Part shown: piece by piece, positions 1,645-41,950 of the stretch
How positions within the stretch are numbered: position 1 is the stretch's first letter
Layout: every line of letters begins with the position of its first letter
Origin: Massalongia carnosa
Lineage: Eukaryota
Reading direction: 5' to 3'
DNA length: 64,000 nucleotides
Assembly: GCA_965645245.1 (NCBI GenBank)
Contig: OZ287082.1
Span: forward strand, 1,550,001 to 1,614,000
Made by a program: the position numbers and the translations under genes
The notes under the pieces: model-generated
The model's database searches: none
Told to the model about the DNA's origin: nothing
What the model saw: the letters and a program-made list of their open reading frames with translations, nothing else

Positions 1645-2324
1645 CATCGGGAAATCGGTAGATGACTAATAGATCTTGATGATTAAATATTCGACTTTTT
1701 GGTTTCTTTAGTATTTATTCATTAACCTTTGGTCAGTTGCCTTTATCTATTGTACGTCTTGTCGTCATATTAGTCAGTGCAAACCTGCATTTCAACAAAT
1801 AATCGTCGCTCTGTCTTTACTTCTCGTCTCGATAAGCTTTATTATTCTCTGTACCTTGACCTTTTAACAATTCAGTCGTATATTATCCACTCTATTCTAT
1901 CTCTACGGCCTCTTTATCCGTCGCAGAGTTATTTTGGTTGTTCAGCTGCTCTCTTTACATGTCACATCGTCATACATTGACTTCGTTGCAGCTTTTGTAT
2001 CTTGCGTATAACATATCTTTATTATGCGTAACCCACCTTGCGTGTCTTATCGAAGATAATATTACGCATATTCAGTTCTCGAAGATCAATAGGAATCTAC
2101 ATCATTACGTGGTTGTGATTTTCATTATTCTTTGAATTGATGTTTATCTGTTACTTGATGACGAGAAAGCCTGCTTAATGCCTACAGAGCCCAAATCTTT
2201 ATTAAGCTCATCTGTTCTGGAACAACAGTCCCTCTTAGACGCAAGCCCTTCCTTATCCTACCAAAAAGCGCATACGTTTAGAAAACCAATTCTCTTTAAT
2301 CCTAACATAATACAACAGGTTACG

Positions 2325-2494
2325 TATGACGAAGCGAGATAGTGAATATATTTCTACCATTGCGCCACCTGTCCTCCCGACCAAAAGGCACAATAATTAG
2401 TCCGCAGACCAAGCTCTATTCTACTATAACTGGGACTCCTGCCATGTTCGCTGTAGGTCCTGCTGTCGAGACCACGCATAGTCGAACCGCTACA
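2325..2494 (-). mobile_element. Solo LTR, same family as 557-727
   Basis: Reverse-complement copy of the 170-bp LTR with a perfect TTACG TSD (2320-2324, 2495-2499). Confidence 0.9.
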
Positions 2495-2699
2495 TTACGT
2501 TATAATCCCGAACGTTAAGTTATAATCCCAAACATAAACGAAACACCCAATCCATCAAGTCTAAAGGATTCAAGAGCACATAAAGGTCTAGATATATGGG
2601 ACGTGCGATGGGGGGGCGCTCTCGGTCGCAATACAAATAGACTCGGTTGGTTATATTAACCTGACAAATAGAATCCACTACTTGATTGGTTCATCGGGA

Positions 2700-3110
2700 T
2701 ATAGATTACACATGCCACAGCTTCCTTCGTATGGACGGTTATCAAAGATAATATGGATGATCTTATCGATAGTGGACAAGAGGTGGTTTGGATAATAGTC
2801 AAAAGGTGGTATGGACGGTGGTCTGGATTGTGGTCAAAAAGTAATCTGGGGGGTGATCTGGATGGTAGATAAATGGTTGACGAAAGATGGTCTAGATGAT
2901 GTTCAAAAGGTGGTATAAGAGGTGAAAATTCAGTTCACGAAGAATATTGCGCAGGGCCGTTGCGGAGCGTCGATGAGCAGGTCTGGGGCAGGAGTTGGGC
3001 TTTTCGGGGGTGCTTACTATATTCAGTACTATCGTCTCCGCAAAGAATACTGTTGTTTTCTGCTATGTCAACCGTTTTCAACGCTACAGGTCTGAAGTGC
3101 CACAGACTCG
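2700..3110 (+). mobile_element. Non-autonomous Helitron 3' fragment (left boundary approximate)
   Basis: GTGGTCTGG-type repeats and GCGCAGGGCCGTTGCGGAGCG are reverse complements of 14290-15800. It ends CAGGTCTGAAGTGCCACAGACTCG followed by T, like the ends at 14169 and 16264. Confidence 0.7.
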
Positions 3111-3166
3111 TTGCCGCTTCCATGATACCTGGTAACTATTGTTACAGGTGAACGGATATCATTATA

Positions 3167-3467
3167 CTATTCCCCCCCCTGAACAATCTTGAAAACATGG
3201 GATTTTGCAAGGGCGGTACGGGGGTATGTGCTAGGGTGAAAACGGGCGTGGATACAGGCTTGTCGCCAATCAGAGAGTCGAATCTTCTGGATATTTGGGG
3301 ACGGAGGTAAAATCACTAAGGGATTCGCTGTAGGGCTGTAAAGTAAAAAATATTTACATGTCCTGATTGGCTCGAAGCGCTGGTTTTCCACCCAAGTGCT
3401 GTCAAGTCATCACTCCCGTCCTCCCCTTGCAAAAAACCCATGTTTTCAAGATTGTTCAGGGGGGTAG
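3167..3467. mobile_element. MITE, Tc1/mariner-type
   Basis: ~55-bp TIRs (CTA(T/C)CCCCCCTGAACAATCTTGAAAACATGGG..TTGCAAGGG), TA on both sides, 301 bp, no credible ORF. Confidence 0.85.
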
Positions 3468-3537
3468 TAAGTATGTGAGGTTGGACATACTGAACCTTTC
3501 AGAGAGATGATGGGTAAGCTAACACCAACTAAGCCTA

Positions 3538-3650
3538 ATCTAACAGCTAACAGGGTTTTCTTGATCTAACAGGATTTTCTTGATCTAACAGGGTTTTTCT
3601 GATCTAACAGGGTTTTCTTGATCTAACAGGGGCTGTTTTAATCTAACAGG
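3538..3650. repeat. 19-20-bp tandem repeat (CTAACAGGGTTTTCTTGAT)n inside the TIR element
   Basis: About 5 units here and fewer at the homologous site 38905-38978. Confidence 0.85.
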
Positions 3651-4419
3651 AACCGTTAGCATATCATAACAAAGTCAACGATCCTAACACGCTAGATTTG
3701 GTTGCAATGGCAAATTTGGTCCTTTTACTTTTCGCGTCGATCTCTTCTATATTGCTCGTTTCCCAAATCCACAGGAATTGCATATTCCTTGTTGCTTCTT
3801 TTATTTCACTATGTCAACATCAAAGGCAACCACTATCAACAACCCACAAAGAATCATAAGGTACGAACCTCCCCAGGATGTATAGAAACCAACGCGTATC
3901 GGCTGACTTTGCTTTTCCTTCGAGAACTATCAGGATTTTGATGATTCGCCTTCCAGGAAGAATTGCCTACATTGACACAACTTAAACGCTCCCGTGCACA
4001 ATTTGATTGGAATAACACTTACGCAGACAACAAACGCTCACATCGCCTGTCTTGTGTGGACGAGTTGGCTGAATCTAGTACTGGCAACGACTCATGCGAT
4101 GCGAGTTTCCAGCCGAGTGTAAATAGTACAGTCATGAATGCATGTATTGTCACGGTACTGCCTCGCTAGCACCCGAATCGAGTCACGGCGCTAAGGCTTG
4201 AATGATAAGCGAGGGCTAGGCTCAGCATGGTTAGCGAGATCAACGGAAAGATTATATCTTTGCTTTCGCTGTTGAGATTTTCTTTCTTCCTTGTCGAACG
4301 TCTTGTAAATATCCGATAGCCTACATATAGCAAAGACTTCGTACCACCTGATCTTATCTCATTGAGTCCTTCTCGTCACACTACGTTCGACCTACCCTAT
4401 CAGCTGGTACGCCTTTGCC

Positions 4420-5598
4420 ATGGCCGAAGCATCGCCCCCGTCCCCATACATCGTTCCAACTCCTCCCGTTTCCGTGGGTTCTGCGGAAAATTTGTTGTCC
4501 GCAGTTCAATCTAATCCCATAACCTGGTATGAGTATATGCAGCGCCTGGATCTATTCGCCCACGATGCCAGTACGCATCTGGATACCAATGATCGCGATT
4601 TAGCAGAGGCGAATCACGCGATCCTAGATTTGAACAACAGACTGGCTGGCAGTAACGCGATAGCTGCCGAGCTTCGTGAACAAATACGATCCGCCCCCAC
4701 CGCAGTCGCACATTCATCTCCGCGTTCAGAGAAACATCCTGATCCGCCTATGTACGGCGGAGACAGAGCCGAATTACGCACATGGACTACTCAGCTGCGT
4801 CTGAAACTCTTGATGAACGCAGATCGATACCCCACCATGCCAGGAAAATTAGCGTACGCGATAAGTCGTCTCAAGGATACGGCCTTGTATCAGATACGTC
4901 CTTATATCAAGGATGACGACACTATCGATCTGCGCGATGTTAGCGAGCTGATTACCAAGCTGGAGCTGGCCTTCGGTGATCCGGACAGAAAGGCCACCGC
5001 ACAGCGAGAACTTCGTCGCCTCCAGCAAGCAAACCGAGAATTCCATGTATATCTGGCCGAGTATCAGCGGTTGATCCCCGATACTGGATACAACGAAGAG
5101 GCGAAACGATCGATCCTGCTAGAAGGCATTAGTAATGAGCTAAAAAGCGCCATCCTGACGCTTGATCTTCCGACCGACCTAGACGAGGTCATTCAGATTC
5201 TCCAGAAGATCGACAACCGCTACCGCGCCACCCAGGCCTCCATCCGCAAAGCTGGGACTGTCTTTAGCAACACATCACGATCTAGCTCTGCACCCACTAT
5301 CGCCGCTGTCAGCAAACCCACACCCGCTCCCGCTCCCACCGTCACCACCACCACCAAAATCTCCGCACCCCCCTCCTCTGACGCCATGGATCTATCAGTA
5401 TCTCGTCATCGAGGCCCTCTTACCCCCGCCGAGAAATCACGAAGAATGAACGAAGGATTGTGCATGTATTGCGGGGGATCTGGACATTTTGCGCAATCCT
5501 GCCCGCTATCCTCGTCCAAAACACGCCCGCGATTCCAAGTCTCTGAAATGGAACAGAAGACTCTTGATTTGGGGGGAAAAGTACAGTCTCCGAACTAA
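4420..5598 (+). CDS. gag: Gag protein
   Basis: 392-aa ORF with a retrotransposon capsid-like region and the zinc knuckle CMYCGGSGHFAQSC. Confidence 0.95.
   Translation: MAEASPPSPYIVPTPPVSVGSAENLLSAVQSNPITWYEYMQRLDLFAHDASTHLDTNDRDLAEANHAILDLNNRLAGSNAIAAELREQIRSAPTAVAHSSPRSEKHPDPPMYGGDRAELRTWTTQLRLKLLMNADRYPTMPGKLAYAISRLKDTALYQIRPYIKDDDTIDLRDVSELITKLELAFGDPDRKATAQRELRRLQQANREFHVYLAEYQRLIPDTGYNEEAKRSILLEGISNELKSAILTLDLPTDLDEVIQILQKIDNRYRATQASIRKAGTVFSNTSRSSSAPTIAAVSKPTPAPAPTVTTTTKISAPPSSDAMDLSVSRHRGPLTPAEKSRRMNEGLCMYCGGSGHFAQSCPLSSSKTRPRFQVSEMEQKTLDLGGKVQSPN
5574..5580 (+). promoter_or_regulatory. -1 ribosomal frameshift heptamer G GGA AAA
   Basis: The pol frame is -1 to gag and open only from 5568 (TGA at 5565). 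The heptamer lies in the overlap before the gag stop at 5598. Confidence 0.8.
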
Positions 5599-8500
5599 GT
5601 CGCGTTTGGAGACCAACACGGAACAAGTGTATTTCAATATCAGCATTTTCCTTGTCCACCAAACCTTTGCCAGAAGAAGAATTAGATGGCAAACATTTGG
5701 TGATATCAATGGTTGTATCCATAGGTAATCGTCAAATAAAGACCTATGCACTAGTTGACTGTGGAGCATCTGGTTTTGCTTTTATTGACTCTTCGTTCGC
5801 GCGCCGTCATTCCCTGCCCCTATCCCCCTTGAAGCAATCTCGTATCCTCGAATTAGCCGATGGACAACCCATCTCCTCTGGTGAAATCACTCACCTAGCC
5901 AAGTTACGTCTTCAAATCGCCACGCATTCCGAGCCCGCCAACCTTCTCGTCACCAATTTGGGCCACTACCCCATCGTTCTAGGGATCAAGTGGCTACAGA
6001 TACACGACACCAGCATACGATGGGCTGGAAACACTCTCTCGTTCACGTCACCATACTGTCTTCAGCACTGCCTCGAAAATCATAAACCCAACACTGTCGT
6101 CGGAATAAGCAACGTTCCAGAACTTCGTGCAGAGAAGGAGCACCCCGCCGCAGTCATGAAAGTCACTAGTCCGGAACAACGAACATCCGCTTCAGACCAG
6201 CCCGGCCGGTCTGAAGGAAAGGGCGCTAAATTGAAGAGGTCTAGCGCTCCCTCCTTCGACCAATCAGATCCAGACCCAAGACCCAAGACCCCGCCCGAGA
6301 CCGAGAAACCTGAGACCGAGAAACCTGAGACCGAGAAACCCGAGATCAAGAAACCCCTGAATATCTGCATGATAGGAGCCGCCCCTTTTGTCCGTCTTGC
6401 GCGGAAAAAGGACTGCGAACTATTTACCGTGAACCTTAGAGACATTGAACGAGCCCTGACCCCGAAACCGGAAGTTGATCCCGCTACAATATTGCCGCCG
6501 GAGTATCACGAATTTCTTGATGTATTTTCCAAGAATGAAGCTGATAAACTGCCCGAACGCCGTAGCTATGACCTCACTATTCCGCTGATGGAAGGGAAAG
6601 AACCCACGTATGGACCCTTGTATGGCATGAGCCGAGATGAATTGCTGGTACTGCAGAAGTATCTTACCGAGAATTTGGAGAAAGGATTTATTCGTTCAAG
6701 TTCTTCCCCCGCCGCGTCCCCAGTACTGTTTGTCAAAAAGCCGGGCGGAGGCCTGCGCTTTTGCGTTGATTATAGAGCATTGAACGCTATGACTATCAAA
6801 AACAGATATCCCCTGCCCCTGATCAGAGAAACTCTAGACCGCCTGAGTAAAGTATGCATTTTTACTAAGCTAGATATAGTCGCCGCATTTAATCGCCTTC
6901 GTATGGCCTATGGAGAGGAGTGGAAAACCGCCTTTCGGACAAGATACGGTTTGTTTGAATATCTCGTTATGCCCTTCGGTCTCGCCAATGCACCCAGTTC
7001 GTTTCAGCATTATATCAATGATGTTTTACGAGAATATCTCGATATATTCTGTACCGCTTATATCGACGATATATTAATCTACAGTAGTTCCATGAAAGAA
7101 CATAAGGGTCATGTCACCAAAGTTTTGAAGGCTCTGCAAAAAGCGGGGTTACAACTGGATATTTCGAAATGCGAATTCCATGTAACGGAGACAATATATC
7201 TTGGATTTATTATTTCGGATAAAGGCATAAAAATGGACCCTAAGAAAATAGAGACCATAAAGAACTGGAATACCCCGGAGAACCTCAAGGATGTGCAGGC
7301 GTTTATAGGATTTGCGAATTTCTACAGACGGTTTGTGAAATCCTTTTCAAAGATCGCTGCCCCCCTCACCGCTATGTCCAAAAAGATTACGCCATTCGTG
7401 TGGACCGAAGAGTGTGCAAAGGCCTTTAAAATCTTAAAGGATGTGTTCTCCAGTGACACCATACTAATTCATTTCGACCCCGATAAGGAAAGCATAGTGG
7501 AAACAGATTCTTCCGACTATATAAGCGCAGGAGTACTATCGCAGTATGAGGTAGAGGGTGTACTTAAACCAGTAGCCTTCTTTTCCAAAAGACTATCGCC
7601 AGCGGAGTGTAATTATGAAATCTATGATAAAGAACTTCTGGCCATTATCAGAGCTTTTGAAGAATGGAGACCCGAATTGCAAGGAGCAGCACATCCAGTA
7701 AAGGTAATAACAGACCATAAGAATCTCGAGTATTTCACTACCACCAAGCAACTCAGCAGGCGCCAGGCAAGATGGGCCGAATTTTTATCACGATTCGACT
7801 TTAAGATAGGTTACAGACCAGGGAAACAAGGAGAAAAACCAGATTCTTTGACTAGAAGATCAGGAGATCTTCCTAAAGAGGGGGACCTGAGACTGGAACA
7901 TCAGAATCAGGTGGTACTAAAACCCCATAATTTCGAACTTCTGGCTAATAATCTGCTTCGCCTGACCGATATTACCAACGATGACGCTGATACGGATAAT
8001 GATCTAGAAACCGAACATGAAGACTCCGAGAAATCTATCGAGGAATTGATGAATCAAGGATACGAGCTGGACCCATTCCCCAATAGCATTTTGACTCTTC
8101 TTCGAAACGGTGCTAGCCATAGCAAGGATATAACTCTGGCCGAATGCGAAGACCGAGATGGGAGACTATATTACCGCGAACGCCTATACGTACCCGATTT
8201 CCATGATTTGAGACTCAGACTATGCAAGGAACACCACGATAGCCCTGTCGCCGGTCATCCCGGTAGAGCCAAAACTTTCGGTTTGCTATCTCGAACTTAT
8301 TATTGGCCCCAGTACCATCATTTCGTAGCACGATACGTACAGAACTGTCACGTATGTTCTCGTAGCAAAGCTTCCCGTCATCCAAAGTACGGTGTGTTAA
8401 GACCTCTGCCCATTCCTCAGCAACGCTGGAGAGATATTTCCATGGACTTTGTAAGCGGCATACCCGAATCCGGTAGTGACAAGAAAGACGCAATCCTGGT

Positions 8501-9521
8501 TGTAGTTGATCGACTCACCAAGATGAAGCATTACATACCGTGCAAAGAGACTACCAACGCTCACGAGTTAGCCAAGTTGTATCTGCAGAATGTATGGAAA
8601 TTACACGGCCTGCCCGAATCAATAGTCTCGGATCGCGGAGGGCAGTTCATCTCGGAATTCTGGAAGGCTCTATGTGAAAGACTAGGAATTAAGTCGGCCC
8701 TATCCACATCCTTTCACCCGGAGACAGATGGCCAAACGGAACGATTCAATGCAGTCATGGAATCATATTTAAGAGGCTACGTAAATTACATGCAAGATGA
8801 CTGGGAAGAATGGCTACCAATGGCAGAGTTCACTAGCAACAATGTTGATTCCGAGACCACTACGACAAGTCCCTTTTTAGCGAATTATGGCTTCCACCCC
8901 CGTCTAGGTTTCGAACCTCTCTCTCGCACCAACAACTCCCCAGAGCTCACCAATGCTGATGAATTTGCTACCAAGATGGAAGAGATTAATGCCCACCTTC
9001 AAAATGAAATGCGATTGGCTCAAGCTCGGTATGAATCCACTGCTAATTATCATAGAACCCCCGCACCGTCGTTTCTCGTAGGAGACGAAGTCTGGTTGAA
9101 TGCTAAGAACATCAAAACCAAGCGACCTTCTAAAAAGCTGGATTGGAAGAAGTTAGGAAGATTTACCATCAAGCGAGTAGTAAGTAAGTATGCTTACGAA
9201 CTTGATCTCCCTACCTCTATGAAAATACACCCTGTATTCCACGTTTCTCTGCTAGAGCCGGTTGCTCAGAACCCACACGATGGCCAAATTCCTCCACCTG
9301 CCCCGCCGGTTGAAGTTGAAGGTGAAGAAGAGTGGGAGGTGGAGAGTATTCTTGATTCGAGATTTTTCCGAAGACGACTGCAATATCTTGTTAAGTGGGC
9401 CGGCCATGACGCACCTAGTTGGAATGAAGAAAAGGACATCACTCACTGCGAAGATTTATTACGAGAATATCACCAACTGAGGCCTACCAAACCTAGAGGT
9501 TCTCGCGGAGCTCGAACCTAA
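5577..9521 (+). CDS. pol: Pol polyprotein PR-RT-RNaseH-integrase-chromodomain
   Basis: LVDCGAS (protease), YIDD (RT), ETDSSD..YDKELLAI (RNase H), HHCC plus DF..SDRG..QTE (integrase), WEVESILDSR..YLVKW (chromodomain). Uninterrupted. Confidence 0.97.
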   Translation, partial: KSTVSELSRVWRPTRNKCISISAFSLSTKPLPEEELDGKHLVISMVVSIGNRQIKTYALVDCGASGFAFIDSSFARRHSLPLSPLKQSRILELADGQPISSGEITHLAKLRLQIATHSEPANLLVTNLGHYPIVLGIKWLQIHDTSIRWAGNTLSFTSPYCLQHCLENHKPNTVVGISNVPELRAEKEHPAAVMKVTSPEQRTSASDQPGRSEGKGAKLKRSSAPSFDQSDPDPRPKTPPETEKPETEKPETEKPEIKKPLNICMIGAAPFVRLARKKDCELFTVNLRDIERALTPKPEVDPATILPPEYHEFLDVFSKNEADKLPERRSYDLTIPLMEGKEPTYGPLYGMSRDELLVLQKYLTENLEKGFIRSSSSPAASPVLFVKKPGGGLRFCVDYRALNAMTIKNRYPLPLIRETLDRLSKVCIFTKLDIVAAFNRLRMAYGEEWKTAFRTRYGLFEYLVMPFGLANAPSSFQHYINDVLREYLDIFCTAYIDDILIYSSSMKEHKGHVTKVLKALQKAGLQLDISKCEFHVTETIYLGFIISDKGIKMDPKKIETIKNWNTPENLKDVQAFIGFANFYRRFVKSFSKIAAPLTAMSKKITPFVWTEECAKAFKILKDVFSSDTILIHFDPDKESIVETDSSDYISAGVLSQYEVEGVLKPVAFFSKRLSPAECNYEIYDKELLAIIRAFEEWRPELQGAAHPVKVITDHKNLEYFTTTKQLSRRQARWAEFLSRFDFKIGYRPGKQGEKPDSLTRRSGDLPKEGDLRLEHQNQVVLKPHNFELLANNLLRLTDITNDDADTDNDLETEHEDSEKSIEELMNQGYELDPFPNSILTLLRNGASHSKDITLAECEDRDGRLYYRERLYVPDFHDLRLRLCKEHHDSPVAGHPGRAKTFGLLSRTYYWPQYHHFVARYVQNCHVCSRSKASRHPKYGVLRPLPIPQQRWRDISMDFVSGIPESGSDKKDAILVVVDRLTKMKHYIPCKETTNAHELAKLYLQNVWKLHGLPESIVSDRGGQFISEFWKALCERLGIKSALSTSFHPETDGQTERFNAVMESYLRGYVNYMQDDWEEWLPMAEFTSNNVDSETTTTSPFLANYGFHPRLGFEPLSRTNNSPELTNADEFATKMEEINAHLQNEMRLAQARYESTANYHRTPAPSFLVGDEVWLNAKNIKTKRPSKKLDWKKLGRFTIKRVVSKYAYELDLPTSMKIHPVFHVSLLEPVAQNPHDGQIPPPAPPVEVEGEEEWEVESILDSRFFRRRLQYLVKWAGHDAPSWNEEKDITHCEDLLREYHQLRPTKPRGSRGART

Positions 9522-9788
9522 AGAGGAGACCTGATGTCACGGTACTGCCTCGCTAGCACCCGAATCGAGTCACGGCGCTAAGGCTTGAATGATAAGCGAG
9601 GGCTAGGCTCAGCATGGTTAGCGAGATCAACGGAAAGATTATATCTTTGCTTTCGCTGTTGAGATTTTCTTTCTTCCTTGTCGAACGTCTTGTAAATATC
9701 CGATAGCCTACATATAGCAAAGACTTCGTACCACCTGATCTTATCTCATTGAGTCCTTCTCGTCACATGTATCGGGTTCTGACTTAGA

Positions 9789-10612
9789 ACAGAAAACGCC
9801 GATAACTAAGTATATTGCGAGGACATTACGGGCCGGCGCAGGCCGCGGTATTCAATACATCTCAAGTTCTCCATCTTGAAGGAGCTCCGTACGAAGAGAA
9901 ACGTTCCCCTCGTCTCCACCGAGAAACCCTTCCCGTGCGCTGGATAATATCTTGTCGCCTTCACAAATACGCACTCGTCGGGGTTTGCCTGCGATACTCT
10001 CCTCGCAAACTCTCGAGATCTCAAAGGTCCTCCCGATCAAGTCTACTTCCGGCATAAGGGCTGGCATAACGGAGAACGAGATAGTCTCCGAAATAAAAAA
10101 AATATATATGCTTATAGTTTACTCTAGGGTGACATATCAAGGCGAACCAAGTTCAACTCTAGCCCTGCTCATCAACCAATACTATGTGCCATGATTCCTT
10201 TTTTTCAACGCTCTGATAACGTCCGGACACGCGGTTGAATTATGTTCGCCTTGGGCGAACACACAGAAGCCTCGATTGAGCAAATTAATGAGTCGTACTT
10301 GGCAGGACCTTGCGAAGCGTCTCGGTGACCTTCCTGGTAACCTTCCTGGCAACCGGAACGTCGACGTAGCAGAGCCTCCCACCGCCAATGAGGCTCGGAG
10401 GGTAGGTGAGGTCTTGCTTACAACGGATTTGTACAAATAAAAACTAATCTGAGAATAGATTTATGATTCGACAACGGATTTTCGATCTCAAATGTTGAGC
10501 AAAGTGAGATTGCTTGTGGCTAACAAATACCCGTTCTCAGTTCAGAGCGACTGTCGAATATTCGTGTCCACTTTGCTAGACGATCTTCATTTTCTGTGCG
10601 AAGATTTATCAA
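9789..10612 (+). pseudogene. Upstream exons of the DUF6532-like cargo gene, copy 1
   Basis: Homologous to 39496-40304. A GTAGGT..CTAAT..TAG intron is followed by IYDSTTDFRSQMLSKVRLLVANKYPF..LLDDLHFLCEDL. Confidence 0.55.
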
Positions 10613-10912
10613 CGGTTATTATGTCCTAGTTATCTTGATACGAGACCGTGCTATCTCAGAACTGAGATTTTCGAGCCGATTTCGAGCTTTTACAATCGAT
10701 ACAATTCGTATGCAATACAATATTATCTATTTACTTAGCGGAAAATGTCACACTTGATTACTCGGACGATAAATTTTTGATATCGGTACAATAGAGTTGT
10801 GGTCTATTTTGCAATTGAAAAAATTTTTATGTGACATGATACGTATATCATCATAAACTTAAAGCATGATTCGGAAGAACATGAGTTACTATATCATGTT
10901 GCAATCGCATAA

Positions 10913-13852
10913 TTACTTAGGGATATATAATGTTATCCGTTTTTCCGTTATTTTGTTCCGGAAATAATACACACAATCGAGACACATCCGTAACTCGAGA
11001 TAATGCCACCATATAACTGACCATAAGTAAAAGGAGGAGCTCGCAAATTGACTCCTACCGTGTCCAATGATTGACCTTGTGACTTGTTGACAGTTATAGC
11101 AAAGCACAATCGGATCGGAAATTGTTTGCGATTTATGATCCAGAGCAACTCGCCTTCCGTGGTATTAAGAAGAATACGGGGAATCAATCGCGTATTACCG
11201 TTGAATTCTCCTCCCAAAATCTTTCCCTCTAGACAGGTCTGCGAAATGTGAGTCAGATGTAATCGGGTGCCGTTATAGAGACCAAGTATAGGATATAAGT
11301 TCCACAACAAAATAATTGGAGCTCCAAGTTTCAGTTGCAACTGTGAAAAAGGTAAAGACGATATTTGTAAGGTTTGAAAAACTCGGGAGGAAGACAGTCC
11401 CCTTGTTCCTGCACCGTATCGTTCTCTATTTGATCAACGGAATTCAAGGTATGCGAATCGCCCCGCAATTTCTTCAGTATTGCACCGTTTAACCCCGCGA
11501 CGATATCGTTTCGCAAAATCAAAATTGCTCGAATTGCGAAAAAATCCGTACCCAGATGAGCTTGCTACATGTGATCGAAGGAAAAACGGTGTCCACGACA
11601 CTTTTTAAGTTGTTCAATTGATTGACTTGTTCCGGTAGCTGAATACGACCGTACAAAGCATGGTCATAAGACACTTTCCCGATCCAGTCCGCAAACGCCT
11701 CCTTGGCGACTCCGTTACGAATTCGCATTTTTTGACGCAAAAACCGGGTTTGAAATCGCGGCCACAGAAAGGTATTTTGAATATTCGCCGCAACGATAGC
11801 TTCCCGATTTCCACGGGGAACAGCGGGTAAGCTTTGACCGAAATCTCCGCCTAACACTATCGGAATACCTCCGAAAAGATCGTGATTGCCTAAAAGGTCC
11901 ATAAAAGTACGATATACGGCCATGAAACATTATTTGTGTTGCATCCACGTCTCATCTCAAATAATTAATACTGTGCGTTGCAAAAGACCGTGTAAATACG
12001 TGTTTCGGGTGATATTACACATGTTGACCTCATTTAAAATCAAAGGAATTTTAAAACGGGAATTTGAAGTCTGTCCGTCAGGAAGAAGTAAAGCCGCAAT
12101 GTCGGAAGACGCAGCGCAAAGAACGATTTTATTCTCCGCCCGAAAATAAATGCAAAGAGTCTTATATAAAAAAGTCTTACCTGTTCCTGCAGGTCCGTAA
12201 ACAAAAAAATGTGCCGTTCTCGGATGATCTCTAACTCCCGCAACAATAGTATCAAGACCGTGTTTCTGATCCGCATTCAGTTGAGTATATCGTTTATTTT
12301 GTAACGTCGTTTCTTCATTGAAATCATAAGTCATTTCACCCGTAATTAAAGGATTTCCAGTACTCCGACCCTAATTATATGTAAAGAGCGGCATATTATA
12401 ATCCTCTAATCGTTTTCCTAACTTCAAAAGAACTTCGTCAAACAAATCAAGGCCGTAATCTAAATGTGGACTCATTAAATCGTCAGGAATATCAGTCATT
12501 GATCGTAATCGAGGCGGTAAATCGTCACATATATCATTTGCGTATTGATTTCATAAGGCCGTGGGATCCGTAACACGACCGTTAATTATAGCGTTTCCAA
12601 ATAACGCCCGCAATCCGTGTCCAGAAGAAAATCGCACTACTTCCGCAAAGCAACTGAACCCTTCCTGATCATCTTCCAACAATCGTCGAGCACTGCAAGC
12701 GGCCTGAAATGTTGGATAAATCACTCCGTCAACAGGGCGCAGATCCTCAAAGGACTGCAGTCCCGGAACAACCGTTAGAAGCATCCGCAAATAATATTTC
12801 TCGCCCGTCATAGGACTGCAGGCATAAATACGACCCACCGCAAATCCGCGTTGACGGGGTTGCCAGCATTTTTTCTTTGCTTCCCAAACATAACTATTCG
12901 GGAAATCTTGATATAACAACACGCAGCCGTCCACGTGAAGTCTGTTATAAGGACCTTGCAAATGATACAATTCTCCGTGAAATTGATAAAATATCGGACT
13001 GCGTCGATTGCGGGGAAGTCGACGATCAGGCTTATAATTTACGTAGGTAAACGTCAACGCGGAGTTGTATTCCTGTAGGCTTTTGCGAAAGGCACAACTT
13101 CTAGAATCTTCTCCGATTAACAGTTGTCGCAAAAAATCAGGAGGAGGCTGAAACGAAATAACACAATATTACCTCGCTTTGCAACAGAAATCGTATTCTC
13201 GTTCGCGTCTTCTGTAACCACGCGGAGCATTTTCTTTCCAATGCCAGGTACCGCAATGTCTACAATGATCATTCATGTGTTGAATCTGTCGCATAGTGGA
13301 CTTTAAAGTATACTGACTTTTAAATGCCGCAGGTAAGTCACGATTCGCAACGGCACGCTCACGACGGGTTTGACGATTTAGACGATTTATATCTCGCGAC
13401 TCCCAACGATTAGCAGATGATGAAACGGATCTAAGACTCGCAACTGAAGGAGATACATGACTGGAAAAGAACCTTGCGGAAGCTTCATTGAGCAACATTT
13501 CTTCCCAAATATTTCGATTGTCCTGTTCGGAACGAACTCGAGATAATGAACTCGATGACAAAAAAGCAGACGATACGGAAGAAATCGCCGCAAAATCATC
13601 GGGCACAATTTGCGAAGACGCAAAAGATACAACAGGACTTTTGGGAGGCGCAGGCGGACTTAAATAAAGACGAACGGGAGGTTTTGGAGGCCGAAAAATC
13701 AGACGGACGCGTCTCACAGGTGGATTTTCTTGTTCATTTAAACCACTAAGCGGTCTGCGGGGAGAAGAAACTGATTGTAAAGACATGACTGTAATAACTG
13801 TAGATATTGCATGAAGTCGCGAGAGGAAAACAGACACGAAACGAAATATCAC
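10913..13852 (-). pseudogene. Helitron RepHel, internally deleted and frameshifted
   Basis: N-terminal CRHC..HW..FCC motif; YNSALTFT..GELYH joined directly to LYQDFP..GEKYYLRMLL; Pif1 helicase motifs GPAGTGKT, LGGDFGQ and TVNKSQGQSL. No HUH Rep core was seen. Confidence 0.9.
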
Positions 13853-14529
13853 GTCTCGTAAGCTAAGCTTAATGAAGACTTGAGTTAAACCGAATCAAGG
13901 TTATTTTCAGATTTGTTGAACGGACGGATTTAGCGCAGTTTTCGGGAATATCAAAACATGAAAACCTCAAATAACGACCACCTCTCACGGCCCATAACTG
14001 GCGTAAAAGAACGTAGTTTTCGGGATACGGATTGATATCCACAGGATCAGTTGATCTACCAAGTTTGACGAAGTGAAACGGTCCGGTACGGTGAAGGCAA
14101 GAGGGGAGTTTTTGGTCCTGTCTGCACGACGTCCTCTCCGCATTATTAATACTTCAGTACTATATAGACGAGACTGTGCCATCTCAGACCTGAGATTAAT
14201 TTGCTACTACTTTTCATTTGCTTACTATTCGGCTTGTTATTTGGCTTGCTATTTTTTCATGCGAATCTCAAAATATCTCGGATTTCTGCTCCGGACCTGC
14301 TCCGCTTCGCTCCGCAACGGCCCTGCGCCATCTCCTCCTTGACACCCGCCAAAGCATCTGTCAAAGCATCTTTCAAATAGTCTCCCAGATAGCCTCCGCT
14401 GATTGTAATAAGGCCCCACATCTAGCTCCTAAATAGCCTTCAAATAGTCTCTGCCGCTTTTCAAATAACCTCCCTTTTTTCCCTGAAAATTCCACCTCGA
14501 CGTTTTTTTGTCTGCTACCCAGAACACCG

Positions 14530-15830
14530 TTAATCTACCATCTAGACCACCTTTTGTCAATCATCCAAACTATCTCTTGATCACCGTCCTGACCACCTTT
14601 TGACCACTACCCTGATCACACTTTGACCGTCACCCGTATTACTTTTTGTCCACCCTTCCAGGCTATCTTCTGTCTATCGTCCAGATCAACTGACAGATCA
14701 TCGTCCAGACCGCCTTTTAATCATCACCCAGATCACCTTTGTCCATCATTCAGACCCTCTTTAACCACTATTCATATCATCTTTTATCCATCACTCATAT
14801 CATCTATTGACCAACGTTCATATCATCTTTTGTCCACCTGCAAGACCACCTTTCGACCTTCACTCAGACCACCTTTTGATCACTATTAAGATCCCCTTTT
14901 TTCCACCTCCCATATCATCTTTTGTCCACCTGTCAGATTATCTTTTGCTCACCTGTCAGATCATCTTTTGTCTATCGTCCATATCATCTTTTGTCTATCG
15001 TCTATATCATCTTTGGTTCATCGTCTTGACCAACTTTTGATCATCACCCAGACCATCTTTAGTCCACCACTAATAACCTTTTTTTCACCTGTCAGGCCAA
15101 CTTTTGTTCATCACCCAGATCACCTTTTGTCCATCGTCCAGACCATCTTTTGACCACCTTTTGACCACCTTTTGCCCATCTTTTGTCCATCATCTAGACC
15201 ACCTTTGTCCATTACTAATATAACCTTTTGTCCACCTGTCAGGCCACATTTTGTCCACCTGCCAGAGCACCTTTTGTCCACCCCTCATATCACCTTTTGA
15301 TCATCGTCCAGACCACCTGCCAGACCACCCGCCAGACCACGTGCCAGACCACCTTTTGTCTACCTGCCATGCCACCTTTTGTCCACCTGCCAGACCACCT
15401 TTTGTCCATCCCTCATATCAACTTTTGATCATAATCCAGACTACCTGCCAGACCACCTGCCAGACCACCTTTTGTCGACCTGCCAGACCACCTTTTGTCG
15501 ACCTGCCAGACCACCTTTTGTCCACCTGCCAGACCACCTTTTGTCCATCCCTCATATCAACTTTTGATTATAATCCAGACCACCTGCCAGACCACCTTTT
15601 GTCTATCACCCAGACCACCTTTTTTCTACCTGTCAGACAGACCACCTGCCAGACCACCTGCCCGACCAACTTTTGTCCATCACCCAGCCACCCAGACCAC
15701 CTTTTGTCTATCACCCAGACTACCTTTTGTCTACCTGCCAGACAGTCTTTTGTCTATTACCCAGACCTCTTTTTGTCCCTCACCCAGACCAACTTTTGTC
15801 TACCTGCCAGACCACCTTGTGTCTACTACT
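14530..15830. repeat. Minisatellite (CCAGACCACCTTTTGTCCACCTG-like) inside Helitron unit B
   Basis: Degenerate 11-12/23-bp units, which produce spurious repetitive ORFs. Confidence 0.9.
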
Positions 15831-16469
15831 AAAATCATTGTATAGCCAGTAATTAATGATGATAGAAATAAATTATGAAATAGATGAAGCAGATGATGAA
15901 GTAAATGATGAAGTAGCAACGCGTTAACAAAACAATAATAATGTTGACATAATTGACACTAAACTACATCGAGTGAACATTAAACCGAATTGAGGTTTTT
16001 TGCAAGTTCGTTAGACAGACTGATTTAGCGGGGTTTTCGGGAACATCAAAACATGAAAACCTCAAATAACGACCACCTCTCACGTCCCACAACGGGCGTA
16101 AAAGAACGTAGTTTTCGTGATACGGATTGATATCCACAGGATTAGTTGAACCACCAAGTTTGACGAAGTGAAACGGTCCGGTACGGTGGAGGCAAGAGGG
16201 GAGATTTTGGTCCTGTCCGCACGACGTCCTCTCCGCATTATTACTACTTCAGTACTATATAGACGAGAAAGTGCCATCTCAGACCTGAGATGTTTCGAAT
16301 GAAAAAATCTAATTTACTACTACTTTTCATTTACTTACTATTTGGCTTGCTATTTTTTCATGCGAATCTCAAAATATCTCGGATTTCTGCTCCGGACCTG
16401 CTCCGCTTCGCTCCGCAACGGCCCTGCGCCATCTCCTCCTTAGCACCCGCCAAAGCATCTGTCAAACCA

Positions 16470-17045
16470 TCTTCCAAATAGTCTCCCAGATAGCCTCCGC
16501 TGATTTTATTAAGGCCCCTCATCTAGTCCCTAAATAGCCTTTCAATTAGTCTCCGCTGCTTTTCAGATAGTCTCCCAGAAAGCCTCACAAAAAACCTCTT
16601 AAATAGCCTCTCAAATAGCCTCCCAAATAGCCCTTAATTATCTCCCAAGTATCTCTTAAATATCTCCTAAATAGCCTCCCAAATATTCCCCTAAATAGCT
16701 ACCAAATAGCCTCCCAAATAGTCTCCGCTGCTTTTCAGATAGCATCTCAAATAGCCTCCCAAATAGCCTTTCAAATCGCCTCGCATAAAGCCTCCCAAAT
16801 AGCCTCCCAGATAGTCTTCACCGCTTTCAAATAGTCTCCAAAATAGCCTTCCAGATATTCTGCGCTGCTTTTCAAATAACTCTTCAAATAGCCTCCCAGA
16901 TAGCTATCAAATAATCTCCCATATAGCCTCCCAAATAACTTTCCAATTAGCCTTCCAAATAGTCTCCCAGATAATCTCTGCTGCTTTTCAATAGCTTTTC
17001 AAATAGTTTCCCAAATAGTTTCCCAAATAGCTACCAGATAGCTTC
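16470..17045. repeat. 12-bp minisatellite (AAATAGCCTCCC)n inside Helitron unit C
   Basis: Degenerate tandem units; the minus strand reads GAG GCT ATT TGG (EAIW). Confidence 0.85.
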
Positions 17046-17637
17046 TTGAATAGCCTCAATATCTATCTCCCCCGTTATCAAAATTTTTTCCGCCGCTTTT
17101 CGCATAGTTTCTTTAGCTTTTTGGTCTCGTGCATCTTGAATTCGTCTATTTTCTCGAAGCTGTCGATAATGAGGCACTCTAGAAGCATAAGAACAATCGA
17201 CTCCGTTTTCTCCTTTCCAACCCGATTTTTCTATTATATGTCGTTTGACGTGATTATAAGCTCGTCCGTCTCGAGTATTATCTATATCATCGTCAATTTT
17301 TTTCGTCAAAATATGTTCCGTTAACATTCCTATATCGAGTTCACGTTGATATTCAGCAAGCGTTTCTCGTGCGAGCGATAAATATTTTATTTTTGCACTC
17401 GATAACGCGTCAACCCGAAATTTGGAAACGATAGAAGAAAAAATGGGAGCGTCTGAAGAAACAAAACGGGATCGCGAATGAATAACAGGAGTTTGTTTTT
17501 GCACCTAATAAAATCATTAATCAAAATGTCAAAATTCAAATGAGAATACTTACCCGAAAAACGCCGTACGGCGAATTGTTGTTATTGTTTATATGTTTGC
17601 GGCATCGTTCGATTTGATTTACGGAACGTGCGGATGC
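17031..17637 (-). pseudogene. Spliced orphan gene carried by Helitron unit C
   Basis: Exon ..INNNNNSPYGVFR, 49-nt GTAAGT..TAG intron (17553-17505), then a 157-codon exon ending IEAIQEAIW and running into the EAIW repeat. Confidence 0.55.
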
Positions 17638-18235
17638 CTGAGTAAGAGCAAAAACGTGTTGAGACATAAAGAGCTAAAATAGATAGAATTATTAGCTGGC
17701 TGAGATGAAGGGAGCTGCGATAGAGAAGATTCTTTACCAGATTGAAATGGATAAAAGCTGCGGCGAAAAGAGCTGCAGTAAAAAGAACTGCGGTGAAAAG
17801 AGCTGCGGTGAAAAGGCTACGGTGAAAAGAGATAGGTAAACAAAACGAAAAGCACAGTAAACCAAATCAAGTCCGCATTAAACCTCTTATGGAGGATTTC
17901 AAAGAAAATCTGATGCTTCGCGAAGAGACCTACTCCCCCTATGGCAATCGGGCGAAAAAGCACGCACGTTTCGAGATATCGACTATGGTTGATATGATTT
18001 ATAGGTCTGCAAAGTTTTACGATATCATACGATAAAATGCATACTCGCAATGAGGTGCTTCTTTTTGGTCCTTTCCGTACGGCGTCCTTTCCGCATTATT
18101 TGATAATTCAGTACTGATCCGCAAGCCGCGTTCCCTTTTTCGGGTTAAATCTAACCGAATAAGGTAGTGTTGCCCAAAGTAGCAGGGGAACCACTTTAGT
18201 ACAATATAGATAAAGTTTAACTAACTCGCGAGTAG

Positions 18236-18760
18236 GCTCCGAAAAAGCAGTTTCTCGCGACTATCCTGATAAAGGCAGTTACTCTGATATTCTTCAATCC
18301 GACAATGACTGCAGTTATAGACACAATACTGATACTGCGCATTTGTTCAATCCACTTCCAGGAGAAGTAATCGTATTGATAGCAACTCTGATTCAACATG
18401 CTATTGGAGAGTACGAATACGGGCTAAAAAAGGTATAGGCTTTTGATGGGTCATAGCGAGAGAGTAAGTTTGTACCAATATAATCTTTGCTGAGTTGAGG
18501 CATTAATACAGAAAAGAAATCCATACTCGAATGACGAACACCTGGGATCGACAGTCATCGGAGAGAAAGATGTTGTTACAAAGTATCATTCATAGGCGGG
18601 TTATGCGTCAGACTAGACAAAGAGATGGGGACTTCTCGGCGGTCACAAAAGCTGTCTACAATCCATTTGCCACTTCTATTGACGACCTTGTAGATCTTAA
18701 TGCGGGAGATGAAATGCAAAGTCGGTCAGGTCGACAGCGTGGCTTTCTTCCTTGACATCT
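18236..18760 (+). pseudogene. Downstream exons of the DUF6532-like cargo gene, copy 1
   Basis: APKKQFLATILIKAVTLIFF..HLFNPLPGEVIVLIATLIQHAIGEYEYG; homologous to 40354-40840. Confidence 0.55.
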
Positions 18761-19443
18761 TCGTGTAGAACTTCGATCGTTCGTTGCGAGGAGGTGGATT
18801 CGGGTTTTTCGCTATGTCTTGATTGGTATTATGCTTTTGGATTATCAGTAATAACAATCGAAGGAATCCTCTTCACCTAGACCGCCGCAGTTGACGAGCC
18901 ACGAGGTATGCAATCTTATTAACCACGTTCTAACGTGGTATTAACATCTCTCCTAGATTTCTTCGTAACGTGGACCCTTACAATTAAAGCACAGCGCATC
19001 ATGTTTATCCTTCGTAAGTATTCGCTTTGTTTATAGAATATCTGTTAGTCTAACAATATGACGGTTCAACCAGGATGTGAAATTGACTATCTACTGGGAA
19101 GCTATGCACTAGAAAATATCGAAGATGCAGAAAGGAAATAAGCAAAGGGTGCCCTCTCTGAGGGTCTAAATAGATAATCGCTTGGCCCGATCCAGCTGCT
19201 TGTCTCTTCATTAATAAGTGAACAGTTTGATCAAACAGTCTTTCTGTCCTTTGTCCCTTTCATCCATTTGTGTTTGCTTTAGAAGGTCGTTTCGATGCGT
19301 CCCTTTCAGTCCTTTCAGACCTCCATTGATTGCCCCTATGATTGCTAAAAGGGATGAGTAACGGAAGCGTTTAGTGCGCCGGCAGATGCCGTACTTTTCT
19401 TTTATTGGCCTTGGGTGGTTATGGTTGAACCGTGACAAACAAT

Positions 19444-19833
19444 TGCGTTGGAAATAGATTAACGACAAGATATTGTCAACTCAAATTCCACTCGCGGAAG
19501 AGGCAATCGTGACGACAGATTCGGGTCAAGAAGTTACAGTAGATTACGATTTACGCATGCGGAAAGACTGGTGGGTTCGAATGAGGTATGATGCAACGTG
19601 GAAGGAGTGGCAGACTGCTGTAGGAATGAAAGATTAGGAGTCGTTCTGGTATACTTAACCAATATTTCCCGAAGCCGTATTGAGCTTTGAGGAGGAATAT
19701 AGTTCGTTTTTGGATCGGGTGGAAAAGGTGCATAGAGTAATAATACGAAGAAGAAACTGGGCGCAATCTCAAGCAGATGAAGACTCTACGAGGGAGGACG
19801 ACAATATGGGAGAACTCATATAACATTATTTAA
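19444..19833 (+). pseudogene. Second cargo ORF of the TIR element, copy 1 (stops present)
   Basis: Homologous to the open ORF 41176-41565 but with in-frame TAG/TAA. Confidence 0.55.
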
Positions 19834-20165
19834 ACCAAATCTTGATAATATACTCGACTGGTGTATCTTTATCGTCGAATCTGGCAGCATCAAGCGCTCG
19901 AAAATGAAACAAAAGCAGTACATTTTGACATAGGCAAGATTTGTTACAATCGTTACTAAACAACAAGTTAATTAATGAAATTATTGGATTCAAAGGCTTA
20001 CAATGACACAAAAGAGTCAATAAAGCAATTATCATCATTGGACAAAGAAAGATAAAGGTAATCAATAATCAAAGAGCAGCTGTTTACAGGTCAAATGTTC
20101 GACTATTCGTCCAGCGCCCATGTCAAACGTGGGCGCAATCGGCAGTACCTAGAACATTTCTGCTA

Positions 20166-21503
20166 CAGTCCAGTGCCAAAAGTCTGCGGCCCAACCCGTT
20201 ATTTTCGTGATTTCACGTTTTCAACTAATCAACTTCCCATCTTCCACCTTATCATTTCACTATGCTTCGTGCTTCTTTGACCCCCATATGTGGTAATCGG
20301 CCTCGTAACAATAAATTGACGCTATATCAACGTGGTATGATTGTTGGGGCCCAGGCGTTGGAGCACACACCGGCGGAGATTGGGATGACTCTTAATTTCA
20401 CTTAATCGACCGTGCAGAGCACTATTCAGAAGCACTCAATTCGCAACGACGGCGTATCTAAATCACGTTCTGGACTGCCTGAAGTGCTGTCAGAACTCGA
20501 TCGATGTTATATCATCAAGCATGCACGAATCGATCCACGAATCACTTATGCACAAATCAAACTAGAAGTGGGGCTCGGCTGTAGTCGTACGACTATTTAT
20601 CGGGCACTCAAACTGGATGGTTTAGCCAACTAGGTAGCTAAAAAACGACCTTTATTGACGCCTGAGATGGCCAAGAAACCCTTTGATTGGTGCTTGCTGC
20701 GGCGTGAGTAGACTTTTGAGTAGTGGTCAAGAGTTATATTGTTAGATGAGTGCTCGGTGGAAAAGGGGTCAGGAAAACAGCTTCAGTGGGTTTTCAGATT
20801 GCCGAAAGAAAAATGGAATAAAGAGATGATACAGCCTGTCCCCAAAGGCAAAGGAGTCAGTGTCATGGTCTAGGCAGCTTTTTAGGGAGATGACATGTCA
20901 GATCTTTACAAATTGGCTCGTGAATTTGCTGCTAAGAAGATGGGGTACTCGGCGAACTCATATATGGAATTATTGAACGATAATCTGCTTGGAATTTGGC
21001 AACCGGTCCTCATTTTCATGTAGGATAACGCACCTATATATAAGGCTAAAAAGGTAATAGAATGGTTCAATGAGAACGGCATAGAGTTAATCGATTGGCC
21101 CCCCTATCCACCTTATTTAAATCCTATCGAGCACGTTTGATATATTATCAAAAAGCTCGTCTATCAAGTCTACCCGAACACAGATATTGTAATCGGCAGT
21201 GATGAAACTGTTCGTGAGGGACTTTAGAAAGCGTTAGAAGAAGCCTAGACGTTGATAGATGTGAAAATGATGAGGAGGTTAATAGAGAGCATGAATAGGA
21301 GGATAAAAGCGTTTATAGCGTCGGAAGGATGGTATACTAAATATTAAAAATCAATTTTTGGGGGAATTCTTATTTAGTAAGTATCTAATCATTATGTAAA
21401 GTTTCAAGATATTTCAGCAATCGTGACGCGGTTGATTGTTGATTGAATGTAATGATTGAAATGTTAGTGGGGTGCGGGGCCGCAGACTTTTGGCCTAGTA
21501 CTG
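20166..21503 (+). mobile_element. Tc1/impala-like DNA transposon, RIP-inactivated
   Basis: TIRs CAGTCCAGTGCCAAAAGTCTGCGGCCC / GGCCGCAGACTTTTGGCCTAGTACTG, TA TSD, single TA at the empty paralogous site (~41884). DECSV, M*DNAP and WPPYPPYLNPIEH motifs with many TAG stops. Confidence 0.95.
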
Positions 21504-25069: not shown

Positions 25070-25430
25070 CTCATCCTCATAAATCTTATCACCTTCATCA
25101 TTCTTATCCTTATCACCCTCATCAACCTCATCACCCTCATCACCCTCATCACCCTCATCACCCTCATCACCCTCATTACCCTCATCACCCTCATCACCCT
25201 CATCACCCTCATTACCCTCATCACCCTCATCACCCTCATCACCCTCATCACCCTTATCACCCTCATCACCCTCATCACCCTCATCACCCTCATCACCCTT
25301 ATTACCCTCATCACCCCTATCACCCTCATTACCCTCATCACCCTCATAACCCTCATCACTCTCATCACCCTCATCACCCTCATCACCCTCGTCACCCTCA
25401 TCACCCTCATCATTCTAATTACTCTCATCA
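25070..25430 (-). repeat. (ATCACCCTC)n 9-bp repeat encoding (DEG)n in the pogo transposase tail
   Basis: Over 30 units; the minus frame QTNFIAFDESN*N-DEGDEG..QTRSYY* continues the transposase. Confidence 0.85.
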
Positions 25431-39185: not shown

Positions 39186-40840
39186 ATGGTACGAACCTCC
39201 ACAGGATGTATAGAAACCAACGCGTATCGGCTGACTTTGCTTTTCCTTCGAGAACTCTCAGGATTTTGATGATTCGCCTTCCGAGGAAGACTTGCCTGCA
39301 TTGGCACAACTAAAACGCTCTCGTGCACAATTTGAGGGAAATAAGACTTACAGAGACAACAAACGCTCACATCGCCTGCCTTGTGTGGACGAGTTGGCTG
39401 AATCTAACTTAGTACTGGCAACGACTCAAGCGATGCGAGTTTCCAGCCAAGTGTAAGCAGTACAGTCATGAATGCATGTATCGGGTTCTGACCTAGAACA
39501 GAAAACGCCGATAACTAAGTATGTGGCGAGGACATTACCGGCCGGCGCAGGCCGCGGTATTCAATACAGCCCAAGTTCTCCATCTCGAAGGAGCTCCTTA
39601 CGAAGAGAAACGTTCCCTTCGTCTTGATCGAGAAACCCTTCCCGCGCGCTGGATAATATCTTGTCACCTTCACAAATACGCACTCGTCGGGTTTGCCTGC
39701 GACACTGTCCTCGCAAACTCTCGAGATCTCAAAGGTCCTCCCGATCAAGTCTACTTTCGGCACAAGGGCTGGCATAACGGAGGACGAGACAGTCTCGAAA
39801 TCAAAAAAATATATGCTTATCGTTTACTCTGGGGTGACATATCAAGGCGAACCAAGTTCAACTCTAGCCCTGCTCATCAACCAATACTATGTGCCATGAT
39901 TCCTTTTTTTCAACGCTCTGATAAAGTCCGGACACATGGTTGAATTATGTTCGCCTTGGGCGAACACACAGAAGCCTCGATTGAGCAAATTAATGAGTCG
40001 TACTTGGCGGGACCTTGCGAAGCGTCTCGGTGACCTTCCTTGCAACCGGAACGTCGATGTAGCAGAACTTCCCACCGCCAAAGAGGCTCGCAAGGTAGGA
40101 GAGGTCTTACAACGGATTTGTACATATAAAAACTAATCTGAGACTAGATTTATGATTCGACAACGGACTTTCGCTCTCAAATGTTGAGCAAAGTGAGCTT
40201 GCTTGTGGCTAACGAATACCGTTCTCAGTTCAGAGCGACTGTCGAATATTCGGGTCCACTTTGCTAGACGATCTTAATTTTCTGTGCGAAGATTTATCAA
40301 CGGTTAGTATGTCCTAGTTATCTTGATATAGAGTTTAACTAACTCGTGAGTAGGCTCCGAAAAAGCAGTTTATCGCGCCTATCTTGATAAAGGCAATAAC
40401 TCTGATATTCTTCAATAACGACAATGACTGCAGTTATGGACGCAATACCGACACTGCGTATTTGTTCAATCCACTTCGAGGAGAAGTGATCGTATTGATA
40501 GCAACTCTAACTCAACATGCTATTGGAGAGTATGAATACGGGCAAAAAAAGGTACAGGCTTTTGATAGGTCACAGCGAGAGAGTAATTTTGTACCAATAT
40601 AATCTTTGCTGAGTTGAGGCATTAATACTGAAAACAATCTATACTCGAATGACGAACACCTGGAATAAACAGTCCTCAGAGAGAAAGATGTTGTTACAAA
40701 GAATCATTCATCGGCGGGTTATGCGTCAGACTGGACAAAGAGATGGGGACTTTTCGGCGGTCACAAAAGCTGTGCACAATCCATTTGCCACTTCTATTGA
40801 CGATCTTGTAGATCTTGATGCAGGAGATGAAATGACAAAG
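39186..40840 (+). pseudogene. Multi-intron DUF6532-like gene, copy 2 (start uncertain)
   Basis: Predicted introns near 39453, 40094, 40304 and 40583. Spliced product ..FRSQMLSKVSLLVANEY..LLDDLNFLCEDL..FIAPILIKAITLIFF..SYG..LFNPLRGEVIVLIATLTQHAIGEYEYG..F. Family assignment is from recalled motif pattern only. Confidence 0.55.
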
Positions 40841-41175
40841 TCGGTCAGGTCGACAGCGCGGCTTTCTTCCTTGACATCTTCGTGTAGAACTTCGATCGTT
40901 CGTTGCGAGGAGGTGGATTCGGGTTTTTCGGTATGTCTTGATTGATATTATGCTTTGGAATTATCAGTAACAACAATAGAAGGAAACCTCTTCACCTAGA
41001 CCGTCGCAGTTGACGAGCCACGAGGTATGCAATCTTATTAACCGCGTTCTAACGTGCTATTAACATCTCTACTAGAATTCTTCGCAACGTGGGCCCTCAC
41101 AATTAAAGCACAGCGCATCAAGTTCATCCTTCGTAAGAATTCGCTTTGTTTGTAGAATATCTGTCAGTCTAACAG

Positions 41176-41565: not shown

Positions 41566-41950
41566 ATCTTGATAATATAATTGACTGGTCTGTCTTTATT
41601 GTCGTATCTTGCAGCATCAAGCGCTCGAAAAGGAAACATAAGCAGTGTATTTTGAAGATTTGTTACAATCGTTACTAAAACAACAAGTTAATTAATGAAA
41701 TTATTGGATTCAAATGCTTATAATGACACAAAAGAGTCAATATAACAATTATCATCATTGGACAAAGAAAGGTAAAGGTAATCATTAGTCAAAGAGCAAC
41801 TGTTTACACGTCAAATGTTTGACTATTCGTCAAGCGCCTATGTCAAACGTGGGCGCAATCGGCATTATCTAGAACATTTCGGCTAATTGACTAATGTAGC
41901 CTATTAGTCGACCATTTGACCAATTCGCGAGTCCTCCCGATTTCCCGATG

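Follow-up and report, generated by a model that had tools for sequence, protein, structure and literature searches.

Within a 64,000-nucleotide stretch of the Massalongia carnosa genome (contig OZ287082.1, positions 1,550,001 to 1,614,000; hereafter the window, whose own numbering is used throughout), we analysed three Helitron units that lie in tandem on the minus strand, in the order C-B-A, between positions 10641 and 18210 (Table 1). The start of every unit is TCTATATWGTACT, and each 3' terminus consists of a hairpin with a stem of 6-7 bp, 11-12 further bases and CTCG. Both internal joints read hairpin-...CTCG|TCTATATAGTACTGAAG on the minus strand, forming CTCG|TCTATA with zero spacer and no extra base at 16264/16263 or 14169/14168, which confirms the abutting head-to-tail ends described in an earlier note made from the letters of the window. 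That note had taken the locus for one Helitron built of three units; the three units stand, and are better described as three separate elements. The hairpins are short and their folding energy is weak (z-scores of -2.6, -0.7 and -1.1 in the three units), so their identification rests on the conservation of stem and spacing across family copies and not on energy.

The two outer ends are the same motifs as those at the joints, and insertion took place at A|T without target-site duplication, both as previously proposed; this is established by the empty paralogous site in the window and by the host site itself, of which the genome has 23 empty copies (control pattern, 0) that also contain the 3' flank sequence of the array. 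The empty joint, with 7,570 bases skipped, occurs in all four sequencing runs that were compared, and the outer 3' flank junction was found mismatch-free in one contig each of runs X3 and X5. No contig spans the array in the four runs, which all consist of short contigs.

Table 1. Features of the Helitron array and its target site (window positions).
Feature	Position	Strand	Description
Unit C	16264..18210	-	Non-autonomous Helitron, 1,947 bp; long-type 5' end, 't'-type 3' end
Unit B	14169..16263	-	Non-autonomous Helitron, 2,095 bp; short-type 5' end, 'a'-type 3' end
Unit A	10641..14168	-	Deleted, frameshifted RepHel Helitron, 3,528 bp; short-type 5' end, 'g'-type 3' end
Junction C|B	16244..16292	-	Hairpin 16275-16292; CTCG end at 16264; TCTATATAG start at 16263
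Junction B|A	14149..14196	-	Hairpin 14181-14196; CTCG end at 14169; TCTATATAG start at 14168
Outer 5' end	18195..18210	-	TCTATATTGTACTAAAG at 18210; host A before it at 18211
Outer 3' end	10641..10668	-	...GGTCTCG terminus at 10641; hairpin 10653-10668
3' flank (original target)	10625..10640	-	T at +1 and ACT at +11 to +13, in agreement with the target motif of the family
Empty paralogous target site	40313..40343	-	A 40329, T 40328; no duplication
RepHel relic in A, in pieces	10951..13894	-	N-terminal part and PIF1 helicase motifs; HUH/Y2 core deleted
23-bp minisatellite in B	14520..15829		Most of B
12-bp minisatellite in C	16563..17057		Within C
157-amino-acid open frame in C	17034..17504	-	Putative; gene status unsupported

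The interiors of the units differ, as the earlier note had described them for A (a RepHel relic) and B (a minisatellite). Unit A is frameshifted and has lost the 1.8 kb that carry the HUH and tyrosine motifs; a related broken copy carries PF14214, PF05970, HUH and Y2 motifs, and the best RepHel protein matches, near-copies aside, are fungal and plant proteins at 44-59%. The "orphan gene" suggested for C lacks support: its frame has no Pfam family and no distant relative, only four near-identical matches, and it is not preserved in other family copies. A second, distant RepHel family (window 59977-60603, minus strand; G000:C21:890805 and C12:1095826), with Rep-domain E-values of about 1e-22 to 1e-25 and without the ends of the present family, may be of the Helitron2 type.

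The stretch common to both junctions, noted before at about 580 bp, comprises 609 aligned bases with 87.7% identity (13885-14474 versus 15980-16576). The 5' 277 bases of B have 5-6 differences from solo B copies and 25 from A, the differing letters not being those of A, and the final 543 bases of B are identical to solo B. Since the 5' end of B is thus of B type and that of A is not, we interpret the shared ~600 bases as family likeness of the ends and not as a recombination scar or duplication. In the long-type 5' end, a second GTACTGAA is present at about +97, followed by short-type 5' sequence with 85% identity (18063-18115 versus 14109-14161); judging from this layout, long 5' ends may represent old 5' ends stacked on one another; alternatively, short ends may have arisen by deletion between the two motifs.

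Genome-wide occurrence of the family

The genome comprises 52 Mb in 25 contigs and is likely that of a fungus, since named protein matches are mostly fungal and one matching sequencing run is labelled lichen metagenome. It was searched with patterns for both ends, which matched 85 3' ends exactly and 110 5' sites loosely (controls, 0 and 13). We examined 109 stretches around the listed ends; nine 3' and ten 5' matches were not listed, and the family counts are therefore lower bounds. There are at least 106 3' ends and at least 93 5' ends, with 28 of each in exact junctions located on 13 contigs, meaning that 26% of the 3' ends (28/106) abut a 5' end. Typing of the units relied on the 5' end, which is long or short, and on the 3' end (g, t or a); the C, B and A types each also occur solo. 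The search for junctions and lone units that the earlier note had suggested thus confirmed that the array is real and part of a genome-wide pattern.

Arrays comprise two to four units in varied order, with about 24 distinct pairings among the 28 junctions by our own count. None of the 28 joins identical neighbours, the two members of the single B-B pair being 88.7% alike. With the minisatellite excluded, the B unit of the window differs by 0.83% from solo copies at C16:767928 and C21:1341774; the nearest relative of C, at G000:C1:1954661, is 2.6% away and has other neighbours; and A is the most diverged unit, about 9-11% from its nearest copy among those examined. From these distances B looks like the youngest unit of the array. 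No second C-B, B-A or C-B-A combination of close sisters was found among 122 units. Elsewhere, the D-E combination occurs four times and B-E twice, and the B-E arrays on C15 and C18 hold sister B copies only 0.28% apart, while the D copies of the D-E arrays have no exclusive shared changes and form a star-like, mosaic pattern. The 3' pattern also had 15 matches in metagenomes outside this genome, none with similarity to the family. At one locus (L087, G000:C14:1019629-1028407) a D unit is followed by an H unit, the reverse of the H-D order on C18, and the junction is replaced by a 390-bp unrelated insert.

Target motif of solo insertions

Solo insertions share a one-sided target motif, T-N7-9-(T)AC(T), downstream of the element and on the same strand. 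After removal of the 28 junctions, four flanks at terminal inverted repeat (TIR) sites, one nested site and two duplicates, 71 solo 3' flanks remained. T follows 69 of these 71 ends, and A precedes 45 of 52 solo 5' ends. Among 10,755 background A|T sites, 7.5% have TAC or ACT with AC at +9, +10 or +11, compared with 50/69 solo flanks (p about 6e-41). The count falls to 1-8/69 when the window is shifted by -6 to +30, and mirrored 5' flanks yield 3/52. The motif is found with all three 3'-end types (17/28, 20/24 and 12/15). One repeat site was used twice at the same base, by elements of 3.8 kb (on C7) and 2.5 kb (on C17), and exists in 13 empty copies. The empty host sites retain the motif, showing that it was present before insertion.

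The element's own start, TCTATATAGTACTGAA, carries TACT with AC at +11 and is a near-optimal fit to this motif. A profile built from the 69 solo flanks only, from which own ends and TIR sites were excluded, reaches a leave-one-out area under the curve of 0.92 and scores the family's own 5' end above all but 0.03% of background A|T sites. The use of sites is graded by likeness, from about 2e-4 per TACT site, through 4/271 for the TIR end, which reads CG|TCTGAGGTACTGA and has 271 copies genome-wide, to 28/93 for own 5' ends.

Two other origins of the flanks were considered and rejected. The solo flanks are not decayed family ends, since only two solo 3' flanks match family references, one being a nested insertion into a B copy and the other a cargo stretch 200 bases out. 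The recurring TCTGAGGTACTGAGGCAA flank is not the 5' end of another Helitron either, as it proved to be the outward-pointing end of a TIR element family. This family (L140-L159) has 271 sites, including pairs at distances of about 0.2, 0.7 and 6 kb. One insertion into a TIR end (L055, G000:C6:1486165) has a messy left junction, in which a few changed host bases, a short filler and a 13-bp 5' fragment precede the full element.

Polarity of the arrays

Taking the distance to the nearest copy as a rough proxy for age, the upstream unit is significantly younger at 8 of the 28 junctions and the downstream unit at 4, with 16 ties. Of the 19 last junctions, six have a younger upstream unit and none a younger downstream unit (13 ties), and in 14 of these 19 arrays the unit just upstream of the last one is the less diverged of the two (Wilcoxon p=0.005, sign test p=0.03). 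All four junctions with a younger downstream unit, the C|B junction of the window among them, are non-terminal, as would follow if new copies also entered junctions already formed. In addition, a short extra 5' fragment (7-132 bp) lies directly upstream of 12/65 outer 5' ends, several of these fragments belonging to another subtype; 13 had been listed, and one was discarded as a low-complexity false match.

Origin of the array

The array consists of three separate members of one Helitron1 family, which we consider likely to have been brought together by successive insertions at existing 5' ends, because the target motif of the family matches its own first bases. Repeated targeting of the A|TC at an existing 5' end, one of three origins proposed in the earlier note, is supported by the target motif, the polarity and the stacked 5' fragments. 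In HUH chemistry the downstream strand of the target ends up tyrosine-linked like the left end of the element (PMC4778049; here and below, papers are cited for the accessible parts of their text). After nicking the target, the transposase would grip the downstream 5' end in the same way as its own left end, and one enzyme site would read both. A single site of this kind would explain why the motif is confined to the downstream side and why resident 5' ends are the best targets. The preferred target would then be the 5' end of a resident copy, reading A|TC or, within a junction, G|TC, and the new copy would land upstream of it. Here A was probably first, C and B being added ahead of it, and B possibly came last, into a C|A junction. 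We give somewhat better than even chances to the idea that this is a Helitron transposase which picks its targets by recognising, on the strand that it nicks, an extended version of the signal at its own left end.

Several observations weigh against insertion at existing 5' ends. The age proxy is imprecise, the copies being mosaic, and no significant age difference is seen at 16 of the 28 junctions. In the window, the upstream unit C seems older than B (2.6% versus 0.83%, p=0.008), which would need insertion at G|T, and G precedes only 3/52 solo 5' ends. The motif window was picked after the flanks had been inspected. According to the 13-base profile, own ends should receive about 0.15% of insertions, against the 26% observed (our arithmetic, from 7.1 bits, 93 ends and 8.2 million A|T sites); it thus under-predicts junctions about 170-fold, and TIR sites are under-predicted as well. 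Since the motif by itself is this much too weak, a further factor is needed, which might be a longer recognition of the left end or an enzyme already bound there. No polymorphic A-alone or C-A form was seen among the joints listed in the four runs. Finally, no intact transposase was found, as those examined among 21 Rep-domain matches were all broken or belonged to the second RepHel family.

The main rival, which we regard as unlikely, is that mixed multimers arise off the chromosome: the 3' end of a peeled strand would join the tyrosine-bound 5' end of another element, the mixed circle would integrate, and read-through would copy composites. Such circles could account for the similar divergence of joined units at 16/28 junctions, for the repeated D-E and B-E combinations with their sister B copies, and for a junction rate that the profile misses by so much. 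They are harder to reconcile with six terminal junctions, B|A included, that join a young unit to a clearly older one with no close sister among the copies examined, with the large number of distinct pairings, and with the lack of exclusive shared changes in the D copies of D-E arrays.

Growth in the downstream direction, by re-use of the original target at the 3' end of an element (G|T plus the retained motif), seems improbable to us. The motif does remain behind every 3' end, one repeat site was struck twice independently, and the last unit is the less diverged one in 5 of 19 arrays; against this, no last unit is significantly younger than its neighbour and six are significantly older, a target already used has no advantage over about 100,000 other TACT sites, and extra fragments accumulate at 5' ends. 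About as improbable is that a B circle entered a C-A pair by homologous recombination at their shared ends, or that the array is an artefact of assembly. B does lie between two direct copies of the ~600-bp junction region that are 88% alike, and the array is spanned by no contig of the four runs, but both ends of B are solo-B-like with no crossover signature, the two junction copies differ by 12%, and the type of junction recurs 28 times on 13 contigs.

The other two origins put forward in the earlier note do not fit this array. Composite transposition by end bypass does not explain it, as the sisters of B are solo, the nearest copy of A is far removed, the sister of C has other neighbours, and no second such combination of close sisters was found among the 122 units; some arrays at other loci were probably copied later as composites, and such moves probably explain a few of them (B-E at C15 and C18). 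A rolling-circle concatemer of one element with interiors diversified later is very improbable, for although circles yield exact junctions of right and left terminal sequences (RTS|LTS; PMC4778049), identical neighbours are absent from all 28 junctions, every unit type exists alone, and B is less than 1% from solo copies.

Relation to known Helitrons

As in canonical Helitron1/HLE1 elements (Helraiser, Xuan-Feng), the family has a 5' TC terminus, a subterminal 3' hairpin, insertion at A|T without duplication, and an intronless RepHel with HUH, two tyrosines and a PIF1 helicase, all copies examined being broken. It differs at the 3' terminus, which is CTCG in nearly all family ends instead of CTRR; the variant ends CTTG and CTAC have been reported for Helraiser products (PMC4778049). 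Since all the other Helitron1 features tested are present, we filed the family as a Helitron1-like variant, a placement by features rather than by a tree. Helitron2/Helentron features are absent: the target is A|T and not T|T, and no terminal inverted repeat was seen by eye in the end sequences.

Published descriptions of Helitron targets go no further than A|T in an AT-rich context (A|T in PMC4778049, PMC5876387, PMC13286980 and PMC11417382), and tandems are usually read as rolling-circle concatemers. Helraiser targets AT in an AT-rich setting, most markedly so on the 3' side (PMC4778049), and wheat Xuan-Feng targets AT only (PMC13286980), whereas the present family uses a spaced (T)AC(T) motif resembling its own start. 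Our literature search found no extended target matching a Helitron's own left end, within a scope of few subscription papers and without figures (logos) or supplements, which could show such a motif; the accessible text of 10.1101/2025.11.13.688278, PMC11934779, PMC10288648, PMC13004909, PMC12001565 and PMC13085455 mentions no self-like target.

Mixed head-to-tail arrays as such are known. In maize, different adjacent Helitrons are joined as CTAG|TC with a G/T junction, for which consecutive insertion was proposed, one option being insertion at an A|T formed with the 5' T of the older element (Du et al. 2008, PMC2267711). That is one case, its order left open and no target motif given in the accessible text, compared with 28 junctions, polarity and a motif here. 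Fusarium FoHeli, likewise fungal, has short duplicated 5' ends (<200 bp) attributed to self-insertion, multiple 5' termini, and one copy inserted 2 bp from another (PMC5148889, PMC13342296); however, it is of the Helitron2 type, with inverted repeats and a TNAT target motif upstream, and genomic tandem FoHeli1 was judged unlikely. Homotypic tandem arrays in plants and bats, ascribed to rolling-circle concatemers (as cited in PMC5876387 and PMC11934779), have exact head-to-tail junctions as here, but neighbours in the present family are never identical, and composite transposition has been described in bats (PMC4224331). Among HUH enzymes, IS91 has a Y2 transposase and inserts in an oriented manner 5' of a short target without duplication (PMC10288648). 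It differs in being prokaryotic, with a fixed tetranucleotide at the cut and no fused helicase. The target of IS91 resembles its own cut sites. What is new in the present family is the extended self-like target, the 26% junction rate and the polarity.

Host repeat and neighbouring elements

The host of the array is a repeat of about 4 kb with some 24 copies and apparent inverted ends by eye, present in the window at ~37890-41950 and, in pieces, at 1645-20165, where it is interrupted by a long terminal repeat (LTR) element, the array and other insertions. The LTR element (4148-9767, plus strand) is a chromodomain Ty3-type retrotransposon with an open pol frame of 1,316 amino acids and 233-bp LTRs that are 100% identical, inserted in the same host repeat as the array. 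Two Tc1/mariner-like relics (20163-21357 and 36679-37870) lie in opposite orientation and are 74% alike, and a 9-bp tandem repeat with 36 copies is found at 25108-25430.

Implications

The family offers a countable case, in which a strand-specific target motif matches the element's own start and a quarter of the 3' ends abut another copy. It bears on target capture by HUH enzymes, on the insertion order of the maize pair, and on the origin of Helitron subfamilies with swapped ends. If targets are indeed chosen by likeness to the left end, a family's own 5' ends would be landing pads and mixed head-to-tail trains the normal product of its activity. Other Helitrons may then owe their unexplained G/T junctions and their multiple 5' termini to this rule as well.

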